From a virus, in UHGV virus genome UHGV-0191815: a DNA stretch of 53,795 bases. One strand, written 5' to 3'. Below the pieces are notes generated by a model. The model ran no database searches. It worked only from the letters and a program-made list of their open reading frames with translations, and was not told the origin of the DNA. Positions 13,604 to 48,677 of the stretch are shown here, one piece after another. The stretch's first letter is position 1, and each line of letters begins with the position of its first letter. Made by a program: the position numbers and the translations under genes.

Positions 13604-13909
13604 TGTGTTTTCTCCTATGGTTAAAATGAACGCGCTGGCGGGCATCCCATTATCATTAGATAGCAGTGATTGACCGCTGAACAGATCCCGCCGTTGCGTG
13701 ATATTTGTTTTTCGCATTGCAGCGACACCTGGTTTTTAAAGAGCTTTCAAGGTATGTGCCATTTGTGCTTTCCATTATCTTTTTTCTTGCATCCTTGCAA
13801 CTATGGCCTTACCTTGTCAGCAAGTTTACAGAATGTTGTTAATAGATCAAGGATTGAAAAATACATTTTGTGACTTGCATCAAAAATTTTTAGGTTATAG
13901 GGTAGCGAT
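13604..13909. promoter_or_regulatory. Divergent immunity-region control region (candidate operators and promoters for the repressor gene and the minus-strand early operon)
   Basis: About 300 bp non-coding between divergent HTH genes; contains atacattttgtgact (13861-13875), the palindromes ttgca-tcct-tgcaa and cttg-tcag-caag, and the nut-like element. Confidence 0.5.
13713..13750 (-). promoter_or_regulatory. nut-like element on the minus-strand transcript (boxA-like GCTCTTTAAAAA + hairpin CGCTGCAATGCG)
   Basis: Reverse complement reads agCTCTTTAAAAAccaggtgtCGCTGCAATGCG; near-identical to the plus-strand element at 22441-22474. Confidence 0.45.
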
Positions 13910-14587: not shown

Positions 14588-14679
14588 GCCATAAAAACGC
14601 CAAAACGTAAACAGAAAACCGTGTTTATTGTTTAAATATCAATGGCTTATAAATTTTATAAAAAAGTATACAAAATGTG

Positions 14680-14708
14680 TTGACTGGTGTTTTTACGTGG
14701 CGTATATT
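14680..14708 (+). promoter_or_regulatory. Sigma70-type promoter for the plus-strand early operon (PL-like), with an operator-like sequence abutting the -35
   Basis: -35 TTGACT (14680-14685), 17-bp spacer, -10 TATATT (14703-14708); gTATACAAAATGTG lies at 14666-14679. Confidence 0.6.
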
Positions 14709-42884: not shown

Positions 42885-43187
42885 TTATTTGTATGCTGCG
42901 AATCGGCATCTTGCTTCATCAAGGTCATGAACATCGTACACGTTATCGTAAATGTAAGTTGCTACCTGTGCTTTCTGTACGTCAGTTGCGTTCGGGAACT
43001 CCATGCTTACGAAAGTCACTGCATCAACGTAGTGTTTGAACATCTTTTTGTTAACGCACAGCGCGTAAATCAATACAGCAGGCCAGCAAATCAGCGCACC
43101 AAAGAATGCCAGGAGCATATTCAGATGTTTTTTCTGAGCTACAACCATAGTTGCGACGAAGCCGATGAAGCAAATTACCAGTTCCAT
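42885..43187 (-). CDS. Membrane protein (100 aa) in reverse-oriented cassette 1
   Basis: MELVICFIGFVATMVVAQKKHLNMLLAFFGALICWPAVLIYALCV (two TM segments) then a soluble tail. Confidence 0.5.
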   Translation of the reverse strand: MELVICFIGFVATMVVAQKKHLNMLLAFFGALICWPAVLIYALCVNKKMFKHYVDAVTFVSMEFPNATDVQKAQVATYIYDNVYDVHDLDEARCRFAAYK

Positions 43188-43197
43188 GATACACCTC

Positions 43198-43305
43198 TCA
43201 ATTGCGTTTATCTTCTGTTGTCATTGCCAGCACCAGCACAGCCATCACATTAAATGCTAACCATGCTGTAATATATACATCTATAACCGTTTTGATTGCG
43301 TCCAT
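43198..43305 (-). CDS. 35-aa TM peptide (cassette 1)
   Basis: MDAIKTVIDVYITAWLAFNVMAVLVLAMTTEDKRN. Confidence 0.3.
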   Translation of the reverse strand: MDAIKTVIDVYITAWLAFNVMAVLVLAMTTEDKRN

Positions 43306-43318
43306 TCACCCGCCCCGC

Positions 43319-43405
43319 TTATTTCTTGTTTTTAAGTGCTTTCAGCATTTCTTCGATAAAGTCGGCATAATGCTCATGCTCGTTGGGTCGGTAGTAGCCT
43401 TTCAT
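43319..43405 (-). CDS. 28-aa peptide (cassette 1)
   Basis: MKGYYRPNEHEHYADFIEEMLKALKNKK; RBS gaggataag. Confidence 0.3.
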   Translation of the reverse strand: MKGYYRPNEHEHYADFIEEMLKALKNKK

Positions 43406-43574
43406 TTTCTTATCCTCTTTTGCTTCCTCCGGTTCATCCGGTCTTTTAAATCCTTTTTCTGTTTCCTGTTAGTTTTAGGGGTTTTCGCCTCCCTCGTTCC
43501 TTCGGTTGGCTGTGCCTCAAGTCTTAATCCCTTATTCCTTCGACCTTCTTTTCTCTCTCTTCCTTTGACTTCTT

Positions 43575-43614
43575 TATACAAAATGTATACGTTGAAGTGA
43601 AGACATTTTGTATA
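43575..43614. promoter_or_regulatory. Pair of inverted palindromic motifs (TATACAAAATGTATAC and ACATTTTGTATA) flanking gttgaagtgaag
   Basis: Read directly; about 40 bp upstream of the tape measure start and upstream of minus-strand cassette 1. Confidence 0.5.
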
Positions 43615-43654
43615 AAATAGGGATCTGGATCACGCTTTTTAGTGAGGTAAAATC

Positions 43655-45994
43655 ATGTCGGGTAGTTTAGGTACAATCTATTACGAAGTTGATGCAAAAA
43701 CTGGTCAGCTTCTTGTCGCTCAGAGACAGGCAGACCAGGCTTTTGACAGCATCGAGCGTGGCGCAAAACGCGCTGACCGCCAGGTGAATACGCTTAAGAC
43801 TTCAATCAAAGCACTATCCAGGGTCATCCATCTGTTACTTGCTGCTGAGGCTGTGCGCCAGTTTATTGACATGGCGGAACAAGCAAAAATGCTTCGCGTA
43901 AAAATCAAACTGCTTACAGGTGAAGCGGAGGCCACGGAACGTGTTTTCAACAGACTGAAAGATATATCAAAAGAAACAGGCCAAAGCCTCGAGGATACTG
44001 GCGACCTGTGGCAAGGGCTTGCTATATCGCTAAAAAACACATCCGCTACAGAAGGCCAGGTCTTAAACCTGGTCAGCACGCTGCAAAAACTAGGCAACCT
44101 GGGCGGCGTGTCTGCGGAACAGCTATCTAACTCCATGCGCCAGTTCCGCCAGGCTATTGATGCTGGCGTGTTGCAGGCTGAAGAATTTAACTCAATACGT
44201 GACAACACACCAACAATCATACAGGAAATGGCCCGCCAAATGGGGTTATCAATGGGTCAGTTCCGCGCTGAAATGCTGGACGGTAAGATCACGGCTGAAA
44301 GGATGCTTAACGCGATCCAGGCCGCTACGCAGGAAACAAACGAGAAGTTCGCACAGTTGCCGCGCACATCAGACATGGCCTTCAACGAGCTAAAAGTTGA
44401 GGTGATGGGCTTTGTCGAACAGTTAGACGATCTTTTCGGCATATCAGATGGCGTTGTGTCAGCAATAGACTTAATCACTGGTGGCGCTGAGGGATTAGGT
44501 AAAGGCGCAAAATTCGCCGCAACCTGTTTCAACACACTGAAAACCGCTGGTAGCGAGTTCATCGACATGTTTGACGATGTTGCTGTTAAAGCTGGTGAGG
44601 TGGCGGAAGAAATCATCAGAATGGTGACGCCAATCAAGGCGCTAATGGATGGCTACAAATGGATGAAGGAAATCATTGACAAACGCAAGGAAGAGCTAAA
44701 CAGCAACAACGAGAAGAAATTTGGCCCTACCATTGGCAAATTTATGACATTCAAGAATGACATAGAAAAAGCCACAGCCGCCTATGATGAGTTTATGCAG
44801 AAACAGGGTGAGGCTGACGATGGCAAGATCACGGGATTCGATCAGCCAGTTGGTAAGCCGAAAAAAGGCAAAAAGAACAAGAAATCAGAAGCTGATCGGC
44901 TTGGTGATGAAGGTATAAAAGTCTCCGACCAGTACAACAAGGACGCCGCCGCCATGCGTAAGGCACTGGAGAACGGCAAGGCCATTGATGCTGCGTTCGC
45001 TCAGGGCAAAATAACCCTCCTTGAGTACAAGGCCGCGCAGAAAGGGATAGGCAAGGAACTGAAAGACGAATTGGCGCAAATACCTGTCGATGAGCTACGC
45101 GACAAATGGGACCACATAGTCAGCCCGATGGACCAGCTTAAGGGCGAAATTGACCCAATCAAGCAGGCGCAAAATGAATGGGCTGTTCGAAAACAAATGC
45201 TGATAGACCTGGGCGCTACAGAGGCGCAACAGAAACAGGCGCTATTGGAATACGAACAACAGATCCGGGATCTGAAATGGGAACAATGGCAGGCGCAAAG
45301 CGACACAAACGGCCTGATTGGTGCGTGCGTCAGCGGCCTGAAAGGTGGCATGGGTAATGCCCTTACCGGACTGCTAAACGGTACTCAATCGCTAAGTGAG
45401 GTTTTCGCCAACCTGGGAAGCAGCATACTCAATACTGTTGGCAATAAACTATCAGAAATTGCCGCTAACTGGATAGCAGATCAATTGATGATGGAAACGC
45501 AAAGCAAGGCTACACAGGCAAGTACAACGGCTGGCGCTGTTGCTGCCCAGGGTGAGATCGCGGCTGCTGCGGCCCCGGCGGCGGCGGCAACTGCTGCATC
45601 GACTGGCGGTAGCTGGGCGGCGGCTGGTGCTGCGGCGCTTTCTGCGATCATGTCACTGGCAACGTCAATTTTTGGTGGCGGGCGTTATAATGGTGGTTCT
45701 GTGAATGGTGGAAGTCTGTACCGCGTAGGTGAGCACGGGATTCCTGAGCTATTCCAGACGAGCAACGGGCGTCAGTATATGATTCCTGGCGAAAATGGTA
45801 GGGTAATTCCTGGCCGCGATCTCTTTAATGGTGGCGGCATCAATATGCCTGTTAACATCACCGTACAGACCACAAACGGATTTAGCGACGAAGACGGTCG
45901 CAGACTTGAACAGACGATGGAACGCGTAGCAATGAAAATGATGGCAAGGGAATCGCAACGACCTGGAGGAATGTTGCAACCGCGCCGCAAATAA
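43655..45994 (+). CDS. Tail tape measure protein
   Basis: 779 aa, alpha-helical, Ala/Gly-rich segments; position before the tail tip genes. Confidence 0.85.
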   Translation: MSGSLGTIYYEVDAKTGQLLVAQRQADQAFDSIERGAKRADRQVNTLKTSIKALSRVIHLLLAAEAVRQFIDMAEQAKMLRVKIKLLTGEAEATERVFNRLKDISKETGQSLEDTGDLWQGLAISLKNTSATEGQVLNLVSTLQKLGNLGGVSAEQLSNSMRQFRQAIDAGVLQAEEFNSIRDNTPTIIQEMARQMGLSMGQFRAEMLDGKITAERMLNAIQAATQETNEKFAQLPRTSDMAFNELKVEVMGFVEQLDDLFGISDGVVSAIDLITGGAEGLGKGAKFAATCFNTLKTAGSEFIDMFDDVAVKAGEVAEEIIRMVTPIKALMDGYKWMKEIIDKRKEELNSNNEKKFGPTIGKFMTFKNDIEKATAAYDEFMQKQGEADDGKITGFDQPVGKPKKGKKNKKSEADRLGDEGIKVSDQYNKDAAAMRKALENGKAIDAAFAQGKITLLEYKAAQKGIGKELKDELAQIPVDELRDKWDHIVSPMDQLKGEIDPIKQAQNEWAVRKQMLIDLGATEAQQKQALLEYEQQIRDLKWEQWQAQSDTNGLIGACVSGLKGGMGNALTGLLNGTQSLSEVFANLGSSILNTVGNKLSEIAANWIADQLMMETQSKATQASTTAGAVAAQGEIAAAAAPAAAATAASTGGSWAAAGAAALSAIMSLATSIFGGGRYNGGSVNGGSLYRVGEHGIPELFQTSNGRQYMIPGENGRVIPGRDLFNGGGINMPVNITVQTTNGFSDEDGRRLEQTMERVAMKMMARESQRPGGMLQPRRK

Positions 45995-45999
45995 TTAAA

Positions 46000-46030
46000 A
46001 CCCCGGTACAATGCCGGGGTTATCTTTATT
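46000..46030 (+). terminator. Terminator after the tape measure gene
   Basis: Stem accccgg / ccggggt with loop tacaatg, then T-rich tract. Confidence 0.55.
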
Positions 46031-46205
46031 CAATTTCATCATTCTTAAATTCGCCGTTTGCATAAAGCTGTAATGCGCTTATCAGTTCGTCGGCTTGCTT
46101 TTTGTCTATTACAATCATCTCGCAGTCGCTAACGATCCATAATCTTCCATCATCTTCAACACTAAGATCAATCCTTCTGCATTCTTCAGTCTCGTTAATA
46201 ATCAT
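46026..46205 (-). CDS. 59-aa acidic protein (cassette 2)
   Basis: MIINETEECRRIDLSVEDDGRLWIVSDCEMIVIDKKQADELISALQLYANGEFKNDEIE. Confidence 0.35.
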   Translation of the reverse strand: MIINETEECRRIDLSVEDDGRLWIVSDCEMIVIDKKQADELISALQLYANGEFKNDEIE

Positions 46206-46243
46206 TATAAACCTTCATTATTTTATTAATTTAGTGAATAAAT

Positions 46244-46414
46244 TTACTCAAATCTTGTATACCCTCTTTCAATTTTCCCTCCTCTTACACTTCTTGCGAA
46301 TACGGCATCTGTGTATCTGAAAAACGGTTCTTTGTATGTCTCGCCTTTACTATCCATCCATTTTAGCACCCATGCCATACGTTTTACATTGCTTTTATTT
46401 GCCGGGTTTTTCAT
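46244..46414 (-). CDS. 56-aa basic protein (cassette 2)
   Basis: MKNPANKSNVKRMAWVLKWMDSKGETYKEPFFRYTDAVFARSVRGGKIERGYTRFE. Confidence 0.35.
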   Translation of the reverse strand: MKNPANKSNVKRMAWVLKWMDSKGETYKEPFFRYTDAVFARSVRGGKIERGYTRFE

Positions 46415-46435
46415 TTTATTTTCCTCCGCAAATCA

Positions 46436-46525
46436 CAACCTGCCGTTTCTTGCTATGTAGCTGCGAGCAAACATCACCTGCCAGATGTTCCAGATCTCCC
46501 GCCATGTGAATTTATCGTCATCCAT
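46436..46525 (-). CDS. 29-aa peptide (cassette 2)
   Basis: MDDDKFTWREIWNIWQVMFARSYIARNGRL. Confidence 0.25.
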
Positions 46526-46533
46526 ATTTCACC

Positions 46534-46788
46534 TCATTTATGCGCACCTTTTACGCCACAGTGGCGGTTGTATTCCAGATGGTCAATAATTAACCACATC
46601 TTTAAATCTTCGCTGAATAACCGCCAATCGGGGTTGATGTCAAATTTATAGCCGTAGCCATCGCGTAATTTTTTGGGGTTGGCCTCTTTTTTCAGGAAAG
46701 AATTTAATAAAGCCTTGCCTTTCTTGATGATCCGTTCCTGGGCGTTTTTCTGTGCTTTCAGGTTTTTGCTAATCATTACCAATTTCAT
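46534..46788 (-). CDS. 84-aa basic protein (cassette 2)
   Basis: MKLVMISKNLKAQKNAQERIIKKGKALLNSFLKKEANPKKLRDGYGYKFDINPDWRLFSEDLKMWLIIDHLEYNRHCGVKGAHK; RBS aaaggggga. Confidence 0.5.
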   Translation of the reverse strand: MKLVMISKNLKAQKNAQERIIKKGKALLNSFLKKEANPKKLRDGYGYKFDINPDWRLFSEDLKMWLIIDHLEYNRHCGVKGAHK

Positions 46789-46826
46789 AACATCCCCCTT
46801 TGTGCAACGTCTTTCTTATTTGCTTT

Positions 46827-46884
46827 CTGTATACAATATGTAATTGCCGAAGTGAAGCCATTTTGAAAACTAGCTATAATCATT
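46827..46884. promoter_or_regulatory. Palindromic motif ctgTATACAATATGTAa plus candidate plus-strand promoter for the tail tip operon (-35 GTGAAG, -10 TATAAT)
   Basis: -10 TATAAT at 46875-46880 with a 17-bp spacer; motif 46830-46842; gaagtgaag box shared with the site at 43591-43600. Confidence 0.45.
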
Positions 46885-46955
46885 GTGACGAAGTTCTCAT
46901 TTTTCGCGTATAAGCGCGTAAAGATGTATGCAATATGTAACTTATAGGGGGAATC

Positions 46956-47309
46956 ATGCCAGAAGTTTTCAAATGGACGCCGCAAAGAAGCTACAGCGTG
47001 ACCAGGGAACCAAATGTGTCGGTCGTTAAACTTGGTGATGGTTATGAACAGCGCCAGGTGAAAGGGATTAACACGTTGCTTGATAGCTATACCCTGGTTT
47101 TTAAAGGAAGTAGCGCCGGATGTGGTGATGGTGGAAACGTGGCGATCCAGGCTGAAGCATTTTTGAGGGCGCGCGGCGCTGTCGAGACTTTTTACTGGAC
47201 GCCTTCGATGGATGGTGTGCAAAGGCTTTTCGTTTGTCGTAGCTGGAGTATGACCAAAGACGGGCCTGTGTACACGTTAAACGCAACGTTTGAACAAGTT
47301 GTTGGCTAA
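46956..47309 (+). CDS. M: Tail tip protein M
   Basis: Collinear similarity to lambda gpM: ...KLGDGYEQRQ...SYTLVFKG...FYWTP...ATFEQVV. Confidence 0.8.
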   Translation: MPEVFKWTPQRSYSVTREPNVSVVKLGDGYEQRQVKGINTLLDSYTLVFKGSSAGCGDGGNVAIQAEAFLRARGAVETFYWTPSMDGVQRLFVCRSWSMTKDGPVYTLNATFEQVVG

Positions 47310-47324: not shown

Positions 47325-47510
47325 ATGTACGGTTTTTGTGTGGTTGATAAGACTGAATCTTTTACATTATTCGCAGACTATGAGATCAACGACCTTGCTG
47401 TAAAAGCTGACAATGGCGATACATGGTATTTGCATGATATGGGTGACGGGTATGTCGGGTGCAGATCCAGGGAGGGTAAGGAGGTTTTATTTTTGGTTGA
47501 TGGTGTATAA
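47325..47510 (+). CDS. Hypothetical small protein (61 aa) inserted after M
   Basis: MYGFCVVDKTESFTLFADYEINDLAVKADNGDTWYLHDMGDGYVGCRSREGKEVLFLVDGV; followed by a terminator. Confidence 0.45.
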   Translation: MYGFCVVDKTESFTLFADYEINDLAVKADNGDTWYLHDMGDGYVGCRSREGKEVLFLVDGV

Positions 47511-47516
47511 AAACAA

Positions 47517-47540
47517 CCCCGCGCGAAGCGGGGTTTTTCT
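47517..47540. terminator. Bidirectional terminator between M-orf61 and minus-strand cassette 3
   Basis: Stem ccccgc / gcgggg with an A-run upstream and a T-run downstream. Confidence 0.55.
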
Positions 47541-47542
47541 TG

Positions 47543-47680
47543 TTAGAAATTCATGTACATCAATCCCATTGGGTGAGCGTGCGCCATGTTGTTTGCTATT
47601 GCCGCCCAGTCCCAATCAGCAGCGTGAACACCGAAGACGATCAAGCCCATTGCGATTAGCGCTAAAACTTCGATTTTCAT
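47543..47680 (-). CDS. 45-aa peptide with signal-peptide-like N-terminus (cassette 3)
   Basis: MKIEVLALIAMGLIVFGVHA|ADWDWAAIANNMAHAHPMGLMYMNF. Confidence 0.3.
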   Translation of the reverse strand: MKIEVLALIAMGLIVFGVHAADWDWAAIANNMAHAHPMGLMYMNF

Positions 47681-47691
47681 GATCCACCCCA

Positions 47692-47763
47692 TTAGCTCAG
47701 AAAGGCATAAACTATGGCAATTGCGCCAGCCACTACCAAAACATCTTCGATAACCTTATCCAT
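47692..47763 (-). CDS. 23-aa TM peptide (cassette 3)
   Basis: MDKVIEDVLVVAGAIAIVYAFLS. Confidence 0.25.
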   Translation of the reverse strand: MDKVIEDVLVVAGAIAIVYAFLS

Positions 47764-47772
47764 AATTGCCGC

Positions 47773-48021
47773 CTATAAGTTATCGCGCAGATAATTAACT
47801 CCTTTATCGGTGACGAACGAATGATTGACCTGGTTTTCGTCCGTCATGATGATGAATAGCTTTTCCTGCAGGTATTTCGCTTTTGGGTACAGCGTTAAAC
47901 AGACCTGGTACAGTATCCCGCGCTCAATCAGCAAATCAATAAATTCGTGCTCATGATAACCGATTAGGCGGGCGGCCTGTTTCAACGTGTACACATAATC
48001 GCCGTGATTGCGCCGCCCCAT
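47773..48021 (-). CDS. 82-aa protein with possible HTH (cassette 3)
   Basis: MGRRNHGDYVYTLKQAARLIGYHEHEFIDLLIERGILYQV... Confidence 0.5.
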   Translation of the reverse strand: MGRRNHGDYVYTLKQAARLIGYHEHEFIDLLIERGILYQVCLTLYPKAKYLQEKLFIIMTDENQVNHSFVTDKGVNYLRDNL

Positions 48022-48030
48022 GTTGCCGCC

Positions 48031-48381
48031 TTATTTATCGAATGCGCCCAGGTTATCAATGCAGAAGTCTTTCGCCGCTTTTTCGTATTCGCGTTTTGCC
48101 TCAGGATCGTCAGCCGGGAAGCCTTTTGCGTGGATTTCACCAGGGCAAGATTGATCCATAGAGTCTGCAAATTCAACATTGACATTGAAGTTAATATCTT
48201 TCGGGTTCATCTCTTCCACCTTATCCGGCACCTGGACCGGAGTAATATCAAAATCACGAGCGTTAGACCAACAGAGAAGCAATTCTCGACCTTCATCACG
48301 CGCTGCGGCATATGTATCAAACAGGCCCATGCGCTCCCATTCACATTTATCAGTCCACACGTCTAACCTGTATTTTTGCAT
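48031..48381 (-). CDS. 116-aa acidic hypothetical protein (cassette 3)
   Basis: MQKYRLDVWTDKCEWERMGLFDTYAAARDEGRELLLCWSNARDFDITPVQVPDKVEEMNPKD...; the overlapping plus-strand ORFs are Ser-rich and look like antisense artefacts. Confidence 0.55.
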   Translation of the reverse strand: MQKYRLDVWTDKCEWERMGLFDTYAAARDEGRELLLCWSNARDFDITPVQVPDKVEEMNPKDINFNVNVEFADSMDQSCPGEIHAKGFPADDPEAKREYEKAAKDFCIDNLGAFDK

Positions 48382-48388
48382 TTCGTTA

Positions 48389-48565
48389 ACCTCTCATTTG
48401 ACAGGTTCGATCTCGTACCCCAAAACGCGTTCGTCTTCAGCAAGTAAAAGTGCGTCAACCAGTGCCTCTCCTTCATCTTTATACATGGCAACAAGCATTT
48501 CCCTGCCATCCGCTAGGAACACCGTCAACCTCCACACCTTATCGTCCACATCACACCTCCGCGCC
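48389..48565 (-). CDS. 58-aa hypothetical protein (first gene of cassette 3)
   Basis: MARRCDVDDKVWRLTVFLADGREMLVAMYKDEGEALVDALLLAEDERVLGYEIEPVK; RBS gcaggg. Confidence 0.4.
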
Positions 48566-48592
48566 ATTTTGTTAACCCTGCTTCATTTTGAG

Positions 48593-48610
48593 TACAATAT
48601 ACATATTGTA
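48593..48610. promoter_or_regulatory. Perfect 8-bp inverted repeat TACAATAT-ac-ATATTGTA upstream of cassette 3 and of gene L
   Basis: Read directly; a candidate -35 TTGATC for the minus-strand cassette lies nearby. Confidence 0.5.
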
Positions 48611-48677
48611 AAAAACGCGATCAACCGTTCTGGTATGGTTTAGTGTGATGGCGATCACAAAATGACAAGGTGATAAA

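Follow-up and report, generated by a model that had tools for sequence, protein, structure and literature searches.

A reverse-oriented small-gene cassette led by a ParE_like gene between the tape measure and M genes of an mEp021-group coliphage

The cassette and its four genes

The virus genome UHGV-0191815 (53,795 nucleotides (nt), analysed in full and called the window below) belongs to the mEp021 (mEpimmI) group of Escherichia coli siphophages, which are temperate coliphages. Between its tape measure protein gene and the gene for minor tail protein M lie four small minus-strand genes, here called A84, B30, C56, and D59, the first of which encodes a protein of the ParE_like family. In lambda, H and M are adjacent; here, the tape measure gene and M are 930 bp apart, and the original prediction that a reverse-oriented small-gene cassette has been inserted at this point is upheld. 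The features of the locus are collected in Table 1.

Are these short frames real genes? The list of open reading frames (ORFs) contains minus-strand ORFs of 84, 29, 56, and 59 amino acids (aa), as first described, three of them at the positions of A84, C56, and D59 and the 29-aa frame at 46416-46505; all lie between the tape measure gene with its terminator hairpin and M. Variable nucleotide sites were counted per codon position in 6-11 relatives. At positions 1/2/3 they number 20/13/59 for A84 (p=2e-9), 6/9/30 for C56 (p=1e-5), and 10/7/20 for D59 (p=0.02, with no stop codon in six relatives). The 29-aa frame gives 12/4/3, is interrupted by two internal stops in relatives, and overlaps a conserved frame of 30 aa (B30; 5/3/17, p=0.001); it was ruled out as a gene on these grounds. 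Third-position substitution bias, together with frames that are intact across relatives, indicates that A84, B30, C56, and D59 are four genuine genes. The claim of four small genes therefore holds for the 84-, 56-, and 59-aa frames, while the second of the four genes is B30 and not the 29-aa ORF.

The original prediction had named non-coding regulatory DNA of the M operon as the alternative, in which case the ORFs would be chance frames. The AT-rich region, the tiny products, and the lack of a curated family for three of the four are what such frames would look like. Against this stand the third-position bias in all four frames, which are kept open in up to 11 relatives, the Shine-Dalgarno sequence that precedes each gene, and the above-threshold family match and confident fold of A84. 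Comparison with relatives makes chance frames hardly credible.

The locus was compared by tblastn with 12 related loci, giving 13 mEp021-group phage and prophage loci in all. B30 shows 90-100% aa identity in most relatives, where a 93-nt gene is annotated, and 70% in mEp021; no copy was detected at the locus in strain M15. Its GAGGTG Shine-Dalgarno sequence overlaps the TGA stop of A84, the spacing between the two genes is 8 nt, and B30 appears to be translationally coupled to A84. C56, preceded by GGAGGA, is found in 12 of the 13 loci at 84-95% identity. D59 has AAGG 7 nt ahead of its ATG and is found in seven loci; the six that lack it retain A84.

The products are basic or acidic, as had been stated, with isoelectric points (pI) of 9.9 (A84), 10.2 (C56), and 4.1 (D59). 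For D59 there is a match to phrog_13627 (4e-9), and a homologue search returned close E. coli copies only, all named hypothetical. Scans against Pfam, NCBIfam, PHROG, and PADLOC gave nothing significant for B30 and C56, the family matches of C56 all being below threshold. B30, C56, and D59 are confined to the mEp021 phage group; a tblastn search of phages with C56 and D59 found that group only, plus one weak Acinetobacter match. None of the five frames had a match in NCBIfam or PADLOC, and no antitoxin or DNA-binding family was matched by B30, C56, D59, or P51, a partner gene found in relatives and described below. The only Rfam match in 45900-47100, to PhrS inside A84, was below threshold and was rejected.

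Table 1. Positions of the cassette genes, the flanking tail genes, and the associated sequence signals in the window.
Feature	Position	Strand	Remarks
Cassette 1 promoter	43601-43573	-	TTCACT…TATAAA; -35 43601-43596, -10 43578-43573
Tape measure protein gene	43655-45994	+	779-aa ORF; so annotated in relatives; PF20155 (TMP_3) on identical contigs
Bidirectional intrinsic terminator	45999-46021	both	Hairpin and T-run called on both strands; shared by tape measure gene (+) and cassette (-)
D59	46026-46205	-	59 aa, strongly acidic (pI 4.1); last cassette gene; phrog_13627
C56	46244-46414	-	56 aa, basic (pI 10.2); third-position substitution bias; conserved
B30	46433-46525	-	30-aa peptide MDDDKFTWREIWNIWQVMFARSYIARNGRL; replaces 29-aa frame
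A84	46534-46788	-	84 aa, basic (pI 9.9); first cassette gene here; PF24732 (ParE_like)
A84 Shine-Dalgarno sequence GGGGGA	46798-46793	-	
Regulatory module	46810-46873		Paralogous to 43554-43620 (cassette 1–tape measure gap)
Candidate cassette promoter (cassette 2)	46856-46828	-	-35 TTCACT (46856-46851), 17-nt spacer, -10 TATACA (46833-46828)
Palindrome TACAATATGTA	46832-46842		In spacer; overlaps first two bases of candidate -10
TATAAT	46875-46880	+	Invariant in 8 relatives; candidate -10 into M, no good -35, not called by scan
16-nt repeat TGTATRCAATATGTAA, second copy	46925-46940	+	16 nt ahead of M ATG; first copy 46828-46843
Minor tail protein M gene	46956-47309	+	PF05939 (Phage_min_tail), E=4e-29
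Cassette 3 promoter	48624-48596	-	TTGATC-17-TATATT; called by scan

The terminator that the cassette shares with the tape measure gene has a folding energy of -17 kcal/mol (z = -4.6) on the plus strand and of -14.5 kcal/mol on the minus strand, where UUUUAAUUAUUU, a U-rich tail, follows; in relatives, a terminator is annotated at the equivalent position. The base composition differs from that of the flanks: the cassette has 35-43% GC, compared with 50-59% in the tape measure gene and 48-50% in M, and the skews invert within it. An insert is thus present as predicted. However, it is not private to one phage, since all 13 loci carry a minus-strand cassette between the tape measure gene and M, a mosaic hot spot in which gene content varies. 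In mEp515 and contig L023, an HNH endonuclease gene overlaps the 3' end of A84; a 49-aa gene (X49) is inserted in mEp515 and mEp554; and in mEp021 and mEp013, zinc-ribbon proteins stand in for C56 and D59. The HNH gene (168-170 aa, PF13392; 2219-2725 in the mEp515 locus L004 and 1743-2255 in L023) resembles a homing-endonuclease insertion within the cassette. The zinc-ribbon repeat proteins are 157-436 aa long (585-1919 in the mEp021 locus L006, 183-1493 in the mEp013 locus L007) and show conservation of the C-terminal domain, with CxxC…CxxC repeats numbering up to six; gp12, from the mEp021 replication region, is a protein of the same kind.

Over 1.2 kb surrounding the cassette, identity to the E. 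coli phages mEp044 and mEp010 from Mexico is about 91.6%; matches to this stretch were also found in mEp554, mEp013, mEp515, mEp021, MagusPhagus, and the prophages of 28 complete E. coli genomes. The mEpimmI siphophages have been described as Nus-dependent and non-lambdoid, and reportedly match lambdoid phages in frequency in human gut E. coli (PMC11893012); the reverse cassettes of the tail region are not discussed in that paper. Directly 3' of M, a plus-strand ORF of 61 aa (47325-47510) corresponds to a 186-nt gene annotated in all relatives; it has no family match, and in the relatives a predicted terminator comes next.

The lead gene A84 and its absent partner

What kind of protein does A84 encode? 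It matches Pfam PF24732 (ParE_like, the ParE-like toxin domain) at E=1.6e-11, with 44.5 bits against a gathering cut-off of 24.4 and over profile positions 2-67 of 67, and phrog_1525 at 3e-19. Its RefSeq homologues carry the name 'ParE family toxin-like protein'. The earlier statement that the cassette products have no recognisable family is therefore wrong for A84. The close A84 family comprises 35 clusters in a word-indexed search; in an exhaustive profile search of 1.84 billion representative proteins, only eight were found at E<1e-3, and this close family is therefore tiny. A profile of distant members brings in further PF24732 proteins; these come from prophages as well as from virulent and jumbo phages, and one of them bears the depositors' name 'YafQ-like ribonuclease toxin'. 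Searches of PDB sequences with A84 alone and with two profiles yielded noise only, and alignment of the A84 profile by hhalign with E. coli RelE and RK2 ParE found nothing.

An AlphaFold (AF2) model of A84 built from a deeper alignment has a predicted local distance difference test score (pLDDT) of 89.3 and a predicted template modelling score (pTM) of 0.78; a first model from a shallow alignment of close homologues (pLDDT 63) was discarded. The model runs from a beta-hairpin through a helix (residues 18-32) and three strands to a C-terminal helix, with a single N-terminal helix. It resembles RelE/ParE-superfamily toxins only, the best being the ribonuclease (RNase)-type toxins YafQ, HigB, RelE, and YoeB; Foldseek returned these families again with weak E-values, and in BFVD the model matched PF24732 proteins of phages fHe-Yen9-04 and RaK2 (template modelling (TM) score 0.74-0.86). 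The predicted structure thus has what marks the superfamily, namely an N-terminal helix on a three- to four-stranded antiparallel sheet and similarity to solved members, and A84 is accepted here as a PF24732 member with a predicted RelE/ParE-superfamily fold.

An alignment of 31 homologues shows no change at R56 and H70 and hardly any at K40, L41, Y73, and N74. By their positions, R56 (in strand beta-3), H70 (right after beta-4), and Y73 (in the C-terminal helix) are presumably akin to the catalytic residues of RelE, YoeB, and YafQ; the presumed counterparts are RelE K52/K54/R61/R81/Y87 and YoeB R65/H83/Y84. The ranking of folds and the invariant Arg56/His70/Tyr73 pattern suggest that A84 is of the RNase type (RelE/YoeB/YafQ-like) rather than a gyrase poison. 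The names in Pfam and RefSeq would make A84 a true ParE-type gyrase poison. This is improbable given that RelE, YoeB, and YafQ typically have such an Arg/His/Tyr pattern, that hhalign found nothing in common with RK2 ParE, and that A84 has one N-terminal helix and not a helical hairpin.

Virulent phages carry PF24732 homologues in gene runs of the early type; others lie in early-left operons, just 3' of CI-like repressors. Two distant members of the latter kind, in a Salmonella enterica prophage (L016, 2790-4123) and in L018 (3001-3848), lie a few genes 3' of CI-like (S24 peptidase) repressors. One of these genes shares 17 nt with the 75-aa hydrophobic ORF upstream of it, and a Band_7/SPFH gene comes next; in the second case, a pentapeptide-repeat gene follows. 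The literature searched gave nothing specific on PF24732, ParE-like morons, or YafQ-like phage toxins. In the annotation of relatives, a plus-strand terminator predicted by ARNold lies inside A84 (46664-46698, GGGGTTGGCCTCTTTTTT); if functional, it would halt late read-through antisense to A84.

In most relatives, A84 is preceded by a partner. P51, a gene of 51 aa (phrog_29810, pI 5.1), lies about 20 nt upstream on the same strand, and the pair is present in mEp021 (gp68-gp67), mEp013, mEp044, mEp515, mEp554, MagusPhagus, and most prophages. Of the complete E. coli genomes (5,426), 33 carry A84 and 34 carry P51; P51 stands directly before A84 in 32 of the 33, UMNK88 alone having A84 without it. 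Two adjacent co-directional small genes, as expected of a type II toxin–antitoxin (TA) system, are thus found in the relatives and not in the window, the whole of which (53.8 kb) lacks P51. In the alignment, the replacement runs cleanly from start codon to start codon and is accompanied by a different upstream-region allele, which UMNK88 shares. An identical A84 protein is encoded on eight metagenome contigs, all of them P51-less, and the P51-less arrangement is therefore a circulating, viable variant and no assembly artefact.

Could A84 be neutralised from within the cassette instead? In a classical type II TA or abortive-infection module, the coupled B30 or the acidic D59 would take this role. 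A basic toxin-fold protein beside an acidic one, the tight A84–B30 junction, and the presence of both B30 and D59 in the two P51-less genomes examined (the window and UMNK88) would fit such a module, and toxin-first gene order occurs in HigBA-type systems. However, the HNH and X49 genes split A84 from B30 in mEp515, mEp554, and L023, B30 was not detected in M15, D59 is missing from six of the 13 loci that have A84, and neither protein matches any antitoxin family. An internal antitoxin is therefore considered unlikely.

Candidate promoter, palindrome, and the other reverse cassettes

The 167-bp gap between A84 and M contains blocks that are invariant in eight relatives amid otherwise variable non-coding DNA: TATACA, GTGAAGCCATTT, the plus-strand TATAAT, a small CGCG hairpin, and the M-proximal TGTATGCAATATGTAAC. 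The first of these would serve as the -10 of the candidate cassette promoter, from which transcription is inferred to start near 46821. A promoter for M had been assumed on the other strand, but a simple scan finds no consensus sigma-70 promoter there, only the invariant TATAAT lacking a good -35. The 16-nt direct repeat, of which one copy covers the candidate -10 of the cassette and the other lies close to M, has 15/16 identity and 97-nt spacing, and the M-proximal copy is conserved in all relatives.

The TACA/TGTA palindrome noted in the original prediction was confirmed at the cassette promoter, and it recurs at the other two reverse cassettes. It is not a chance occurrence: exact TACAWWWTGTA is found three times in the window compared with 0.1 expected, once in the gap upstream of each reverse cassette, and the pattern TACRNNNYGTATA has five matches, all at four promoters, against 0.34 expected. 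The full palindrome is restricted to the P51-less allele (window, UMNK88, and L022), while P51-bearing relatives retain ACA-N3-TGT. Because it overlaps the -10, the palindrome suggests itself as a candidate operator; that role is deduced from its position.

All three cassette promoters share one layout, in which the -35 is followed by 8 nt, TACAWWWTG, and TATAxx. The regulatory module of the present cassette (cassette 2) is paralogous to that between cassette 1 and the tape measure gene, with a local alignment score of 48 compared with a mean of 17.4 for shuffled sequences (standard deviation 2.5, maximum 32). The 17-mer GAAGTGAAGMCATTTTG is common to both modules and found nowhere else, and the paralogy is also seen in mEp044 and mEp021.

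Cassette 1 (42885-43600, minus strand) lies between a DUF6246 gene in the tail-chaperone position and the tape measure gene, and comprises two hydrophobic ORFs (100 and 35 aa) and a further ORF of 28 aa. Its leader of about 170 nt is purine-rich with an AT skew of -0.5, a 59-aa ORF starting with TTG (43402-43581) is of low complexity and probably spurious, and its promoter module (gap 43554-43620) holds a perfect 15-bp palindrome, TATACAAAATGTATA. Cassette 3 (47540-48624, minus strand) lies between M and L; it contains hydrophobic ORFs of 57, 116, and 49 aa and an 82-aa ORF with a KilAC/ANT domain (PF03374, E=7e-7). Here, the scan calls both the minus-strand promoter and a plus-strand promoter (TTGTTA-18-TACAAT), and the two overlap the palindrome at 48600-48610.

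The fourth promoter with this pattern is the strong early promoter to the right of the repressor gene (14680-14708; TTGACT-17-TATATT, 10/12), where the analogous arrangement is TACGTGGCG-TATATT and the layout shared with the three cassette promoters reads TACRNNNYG-TATA. In this region (14668-14708), ATACAAAATGT stands immediately 5' of the -35 and TACGTGGCGTA covers the spacer and the -10. ATACAWWWTGT abuts the -35 of the early and cassette 1 promoters and is also found upstream of the repressor gene. Two TACANNNTGT sites lie 36 bp apart upstream of the repressor gene (13827-13872), and in the gap between the repressor gene and cro, motifs of the CTTGCA type recur and a CRP-like TGTGACTTGCATCAAA is present. 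For the mEpimmI immunity group, the literature consulted does not seem to define the operators.

Does the repressor, Rep, act on the palindrome? The sites near the repressor gene make it a suggestive candidate for the Rep operator, though not a conclusive one. If so, the cassette might be an early lytic-phase unit, in which a repressor-type regulator (Rep or another) bound to the -10 palindrome silences A84 in lysogens. Production of A84 would then begin on infection or induction, and it would act as an RNase against the host in shut-off or counter-defence; silenced by the repressor and made only early, it would need no antitoxin. The palindromes over the three cassette -10 elements, the similar layout of the early promoter, the ATACAWWWTGT sites beside its -35 and upstream of the repressor gene, the viability of A84 without P51, and the early-type settings of PF24732 homologues in virulent phages and 3' of CI-like repressors all point in this direction. 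However, mEp021 has a Rep of 96% identity, and there each of the two sites in the immunity region is altered at an outer position. The relaxed palindrome motif is weakly enriched (35 compared with 23±5), the CTTGCA-type motifs of the repressor-cro gap are better repeated, and the palindrome of the early promoter reads TACG..CGTA and not TACA..TGTA. An early unit is the main rival to the moron interpretation set out below; it is a real possibility, though clearly the less probable one.

A proposal that goes further is that the three cassettes form one regulon, controlled through an 11-bp TACA-N3-TGTA operator over the -10 with the layout of the early promoter. In this lineage, the antitoxin-like P51 would have been discarded, and A84, restrained in one state by an operator-bound phage regulator and in the other by head-on late transcription, would act at a set point of the life cycle as an antitoxin-less toxin in host shut-off or the exclusion of competitors. 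This combination is speculative and, taken as a whole, rather doubtful.

A moron-type interpretation and its relation to known systems

The preferred interpretation, with a probability of about 0.6, is that the region is an autonomous leftward moron-type accessory unit in a tape measure–M exchange hot spot of an mEp021-group coliphage. Extra DNA between tail genes, a terminator of its own, and a deviating base composition are the marks of a moron found here. Leftward transcription would start at the weak sigma-70-type promoter in the A84–M gap, run through A84, B30, C56, and D59, and stop at the bidirectional hairpin shared with the tape measure gene. The palindrome over the -10 would control this promoter, and the same layout would drive the other two reverse cassettes, so that the three units are probably co-regulated. 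Since the cassettes face the late tail operon, antisense interference would be expected once late transcription begins.

The lead gene of this unit encodes a minimal toxin-fold protein and is a toxin-like gene that stands alone, since P51 is cleanly absent; in relatives, the P51-A84 order is typical of a type II TA pair. As a solo gene, A84 would have to be harmless at its natural level, neutralised by something else, or transcriptionally off. The likely role of the moron-type unit lies in phage-host or phage-phage conflict (exclusion, abortive infection, or host shut-off) and not in virion structure.

Several observations weigh against this interpretation. The cassette promoter is below consensus (4/6 and 4/6, with no T at -7) and is not called by the simple scan, which misses it because the -10 lacks the final T. 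None of the PADLOC-DB defence models matches any of the five frames at E ≤ 1. The equivalence of R56, H70, and Y73 to catalytic residues of RelE and YoeB is a presumed one. Genes of PF24732 are common in virulent phages and none was found on plasmids (a tblastn search of 72,556 plasmids with A84 gave no match); this distribution fits a lytic-cycle role at least as well as expression from the prophage.

The partner gene adds to these points. In Pfam and PHROG, P51 matches only phrog_29810, a family of unknown function, and no antitoxin-like family. It is 84-98% identical across relatives while A84 ranges from 61 to 98%, so the two do not co-diverge, and the distant PF24732 genes have no common neighbouring partner at the sequence level. 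Together with the viability of A84 without P51, this weakens the reading of P51 as the antitoxin of a constitutively expressed toxin; as an intact A84 persists without P51, the TA reading of the pair is unproven.

How does the proposed moron compare with known systems? Morons have been defined with gene 15 of HK97 (Juhala/Hendrix) as the prototype, which lies between the tail chaperone and tape measure genes (reviewed in PMC3594210). The present cassette is similar in being extra DNA of deviant composition between conserved tail genes, with its own terminator, a candidate promoter, and small products unrelated to virion structure; it is cassette 1 that occupies the chaperone/tape measure position of HK97 gene 15. 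In contrast to gene 15, the cassette has four genes, is oriented opposite to the late operon, encodes no membrane protein, and occupies a hot spot conserved across a phage group rather than being unique to one phage.

Antisense genes with their own promoter are also nested in other phage operons, such as tha/ith of 80alpha (PMC11087260) and taiEcA of phi80 (PMC11364771), and these noncontiguous operons provide a built-in switch between lysogenic and lytic expression (PMC11087260, PMC11364771). The reverse cassettes of the window (at 42885-43600, in the 46026-46955 region, and at 47540-48570) are antisense genes nested in an operon in the same sense. By contrast, a terminator separates the convergent units here, and the products are unrelated.

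At the protein level, the ribosome-dependent mRNA interferases RelE, YoeB, YafQ, and HigB are, like A84, small and basic; the conserved Arg in beta-3 and His/Tyr after beta-4 are a presumed further resemblance, and in the relatives, A84 likewise comes after a small upstream gene. A84 differs from them in having no detectable sequence similarity, no recognisable antitoxin, and no partner here, and in its combination of one N-terminal helix and a beta-hairpin instead of two helices. With the ParE gyrase poisons (ParDE, PaaA2-ParE2), it shares the superfamily fold and the name given by Pfam and RefSeq.

Proteins of the same curated family (PF24732/phrog_1525) are found in Sortsne, Kc237, IME279, phiKp_21, RaK2, fHe-Yen9-04, and Muenster. 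Elsewhere, such phage proteins are 70-82 aa long and encoded in co-directional early-type runs (virulent and jumbo phages) or in prophage early-left operons, whereas A84 is the first gene of a reverse cassette within a temperate phage's tail operon. The orthologous locus is that of mEp021 gp68-gp67 and its equivalents in mEp013, mEp044, mEp515, mEp554, MagusPhagus, and 32 E. coli prophages, with 61-98% identity in A84; from these pairs, the window differs in the lack of P51 and in a distinct promoter-region allele with the full palindrome.

Morons in tail operons are already well known, and the cassette described here adds a case led by a ParE_like gene. The analysis provides four real small genes, one corrected ORF call, and a fold and candidate catalytic residues for the lead gene. 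A natural comparison is available, since the same toxin-fold gene circulates both paired with the 51-aa gene and alone. The question of whether members of PF24732 are genuine toxins also bears on the many copies in virulent and jumbo phages, and the promoter-palindrome module of the three reverse cassettes offers a handle on the timing of accessory genes that lie antisense in late operons.

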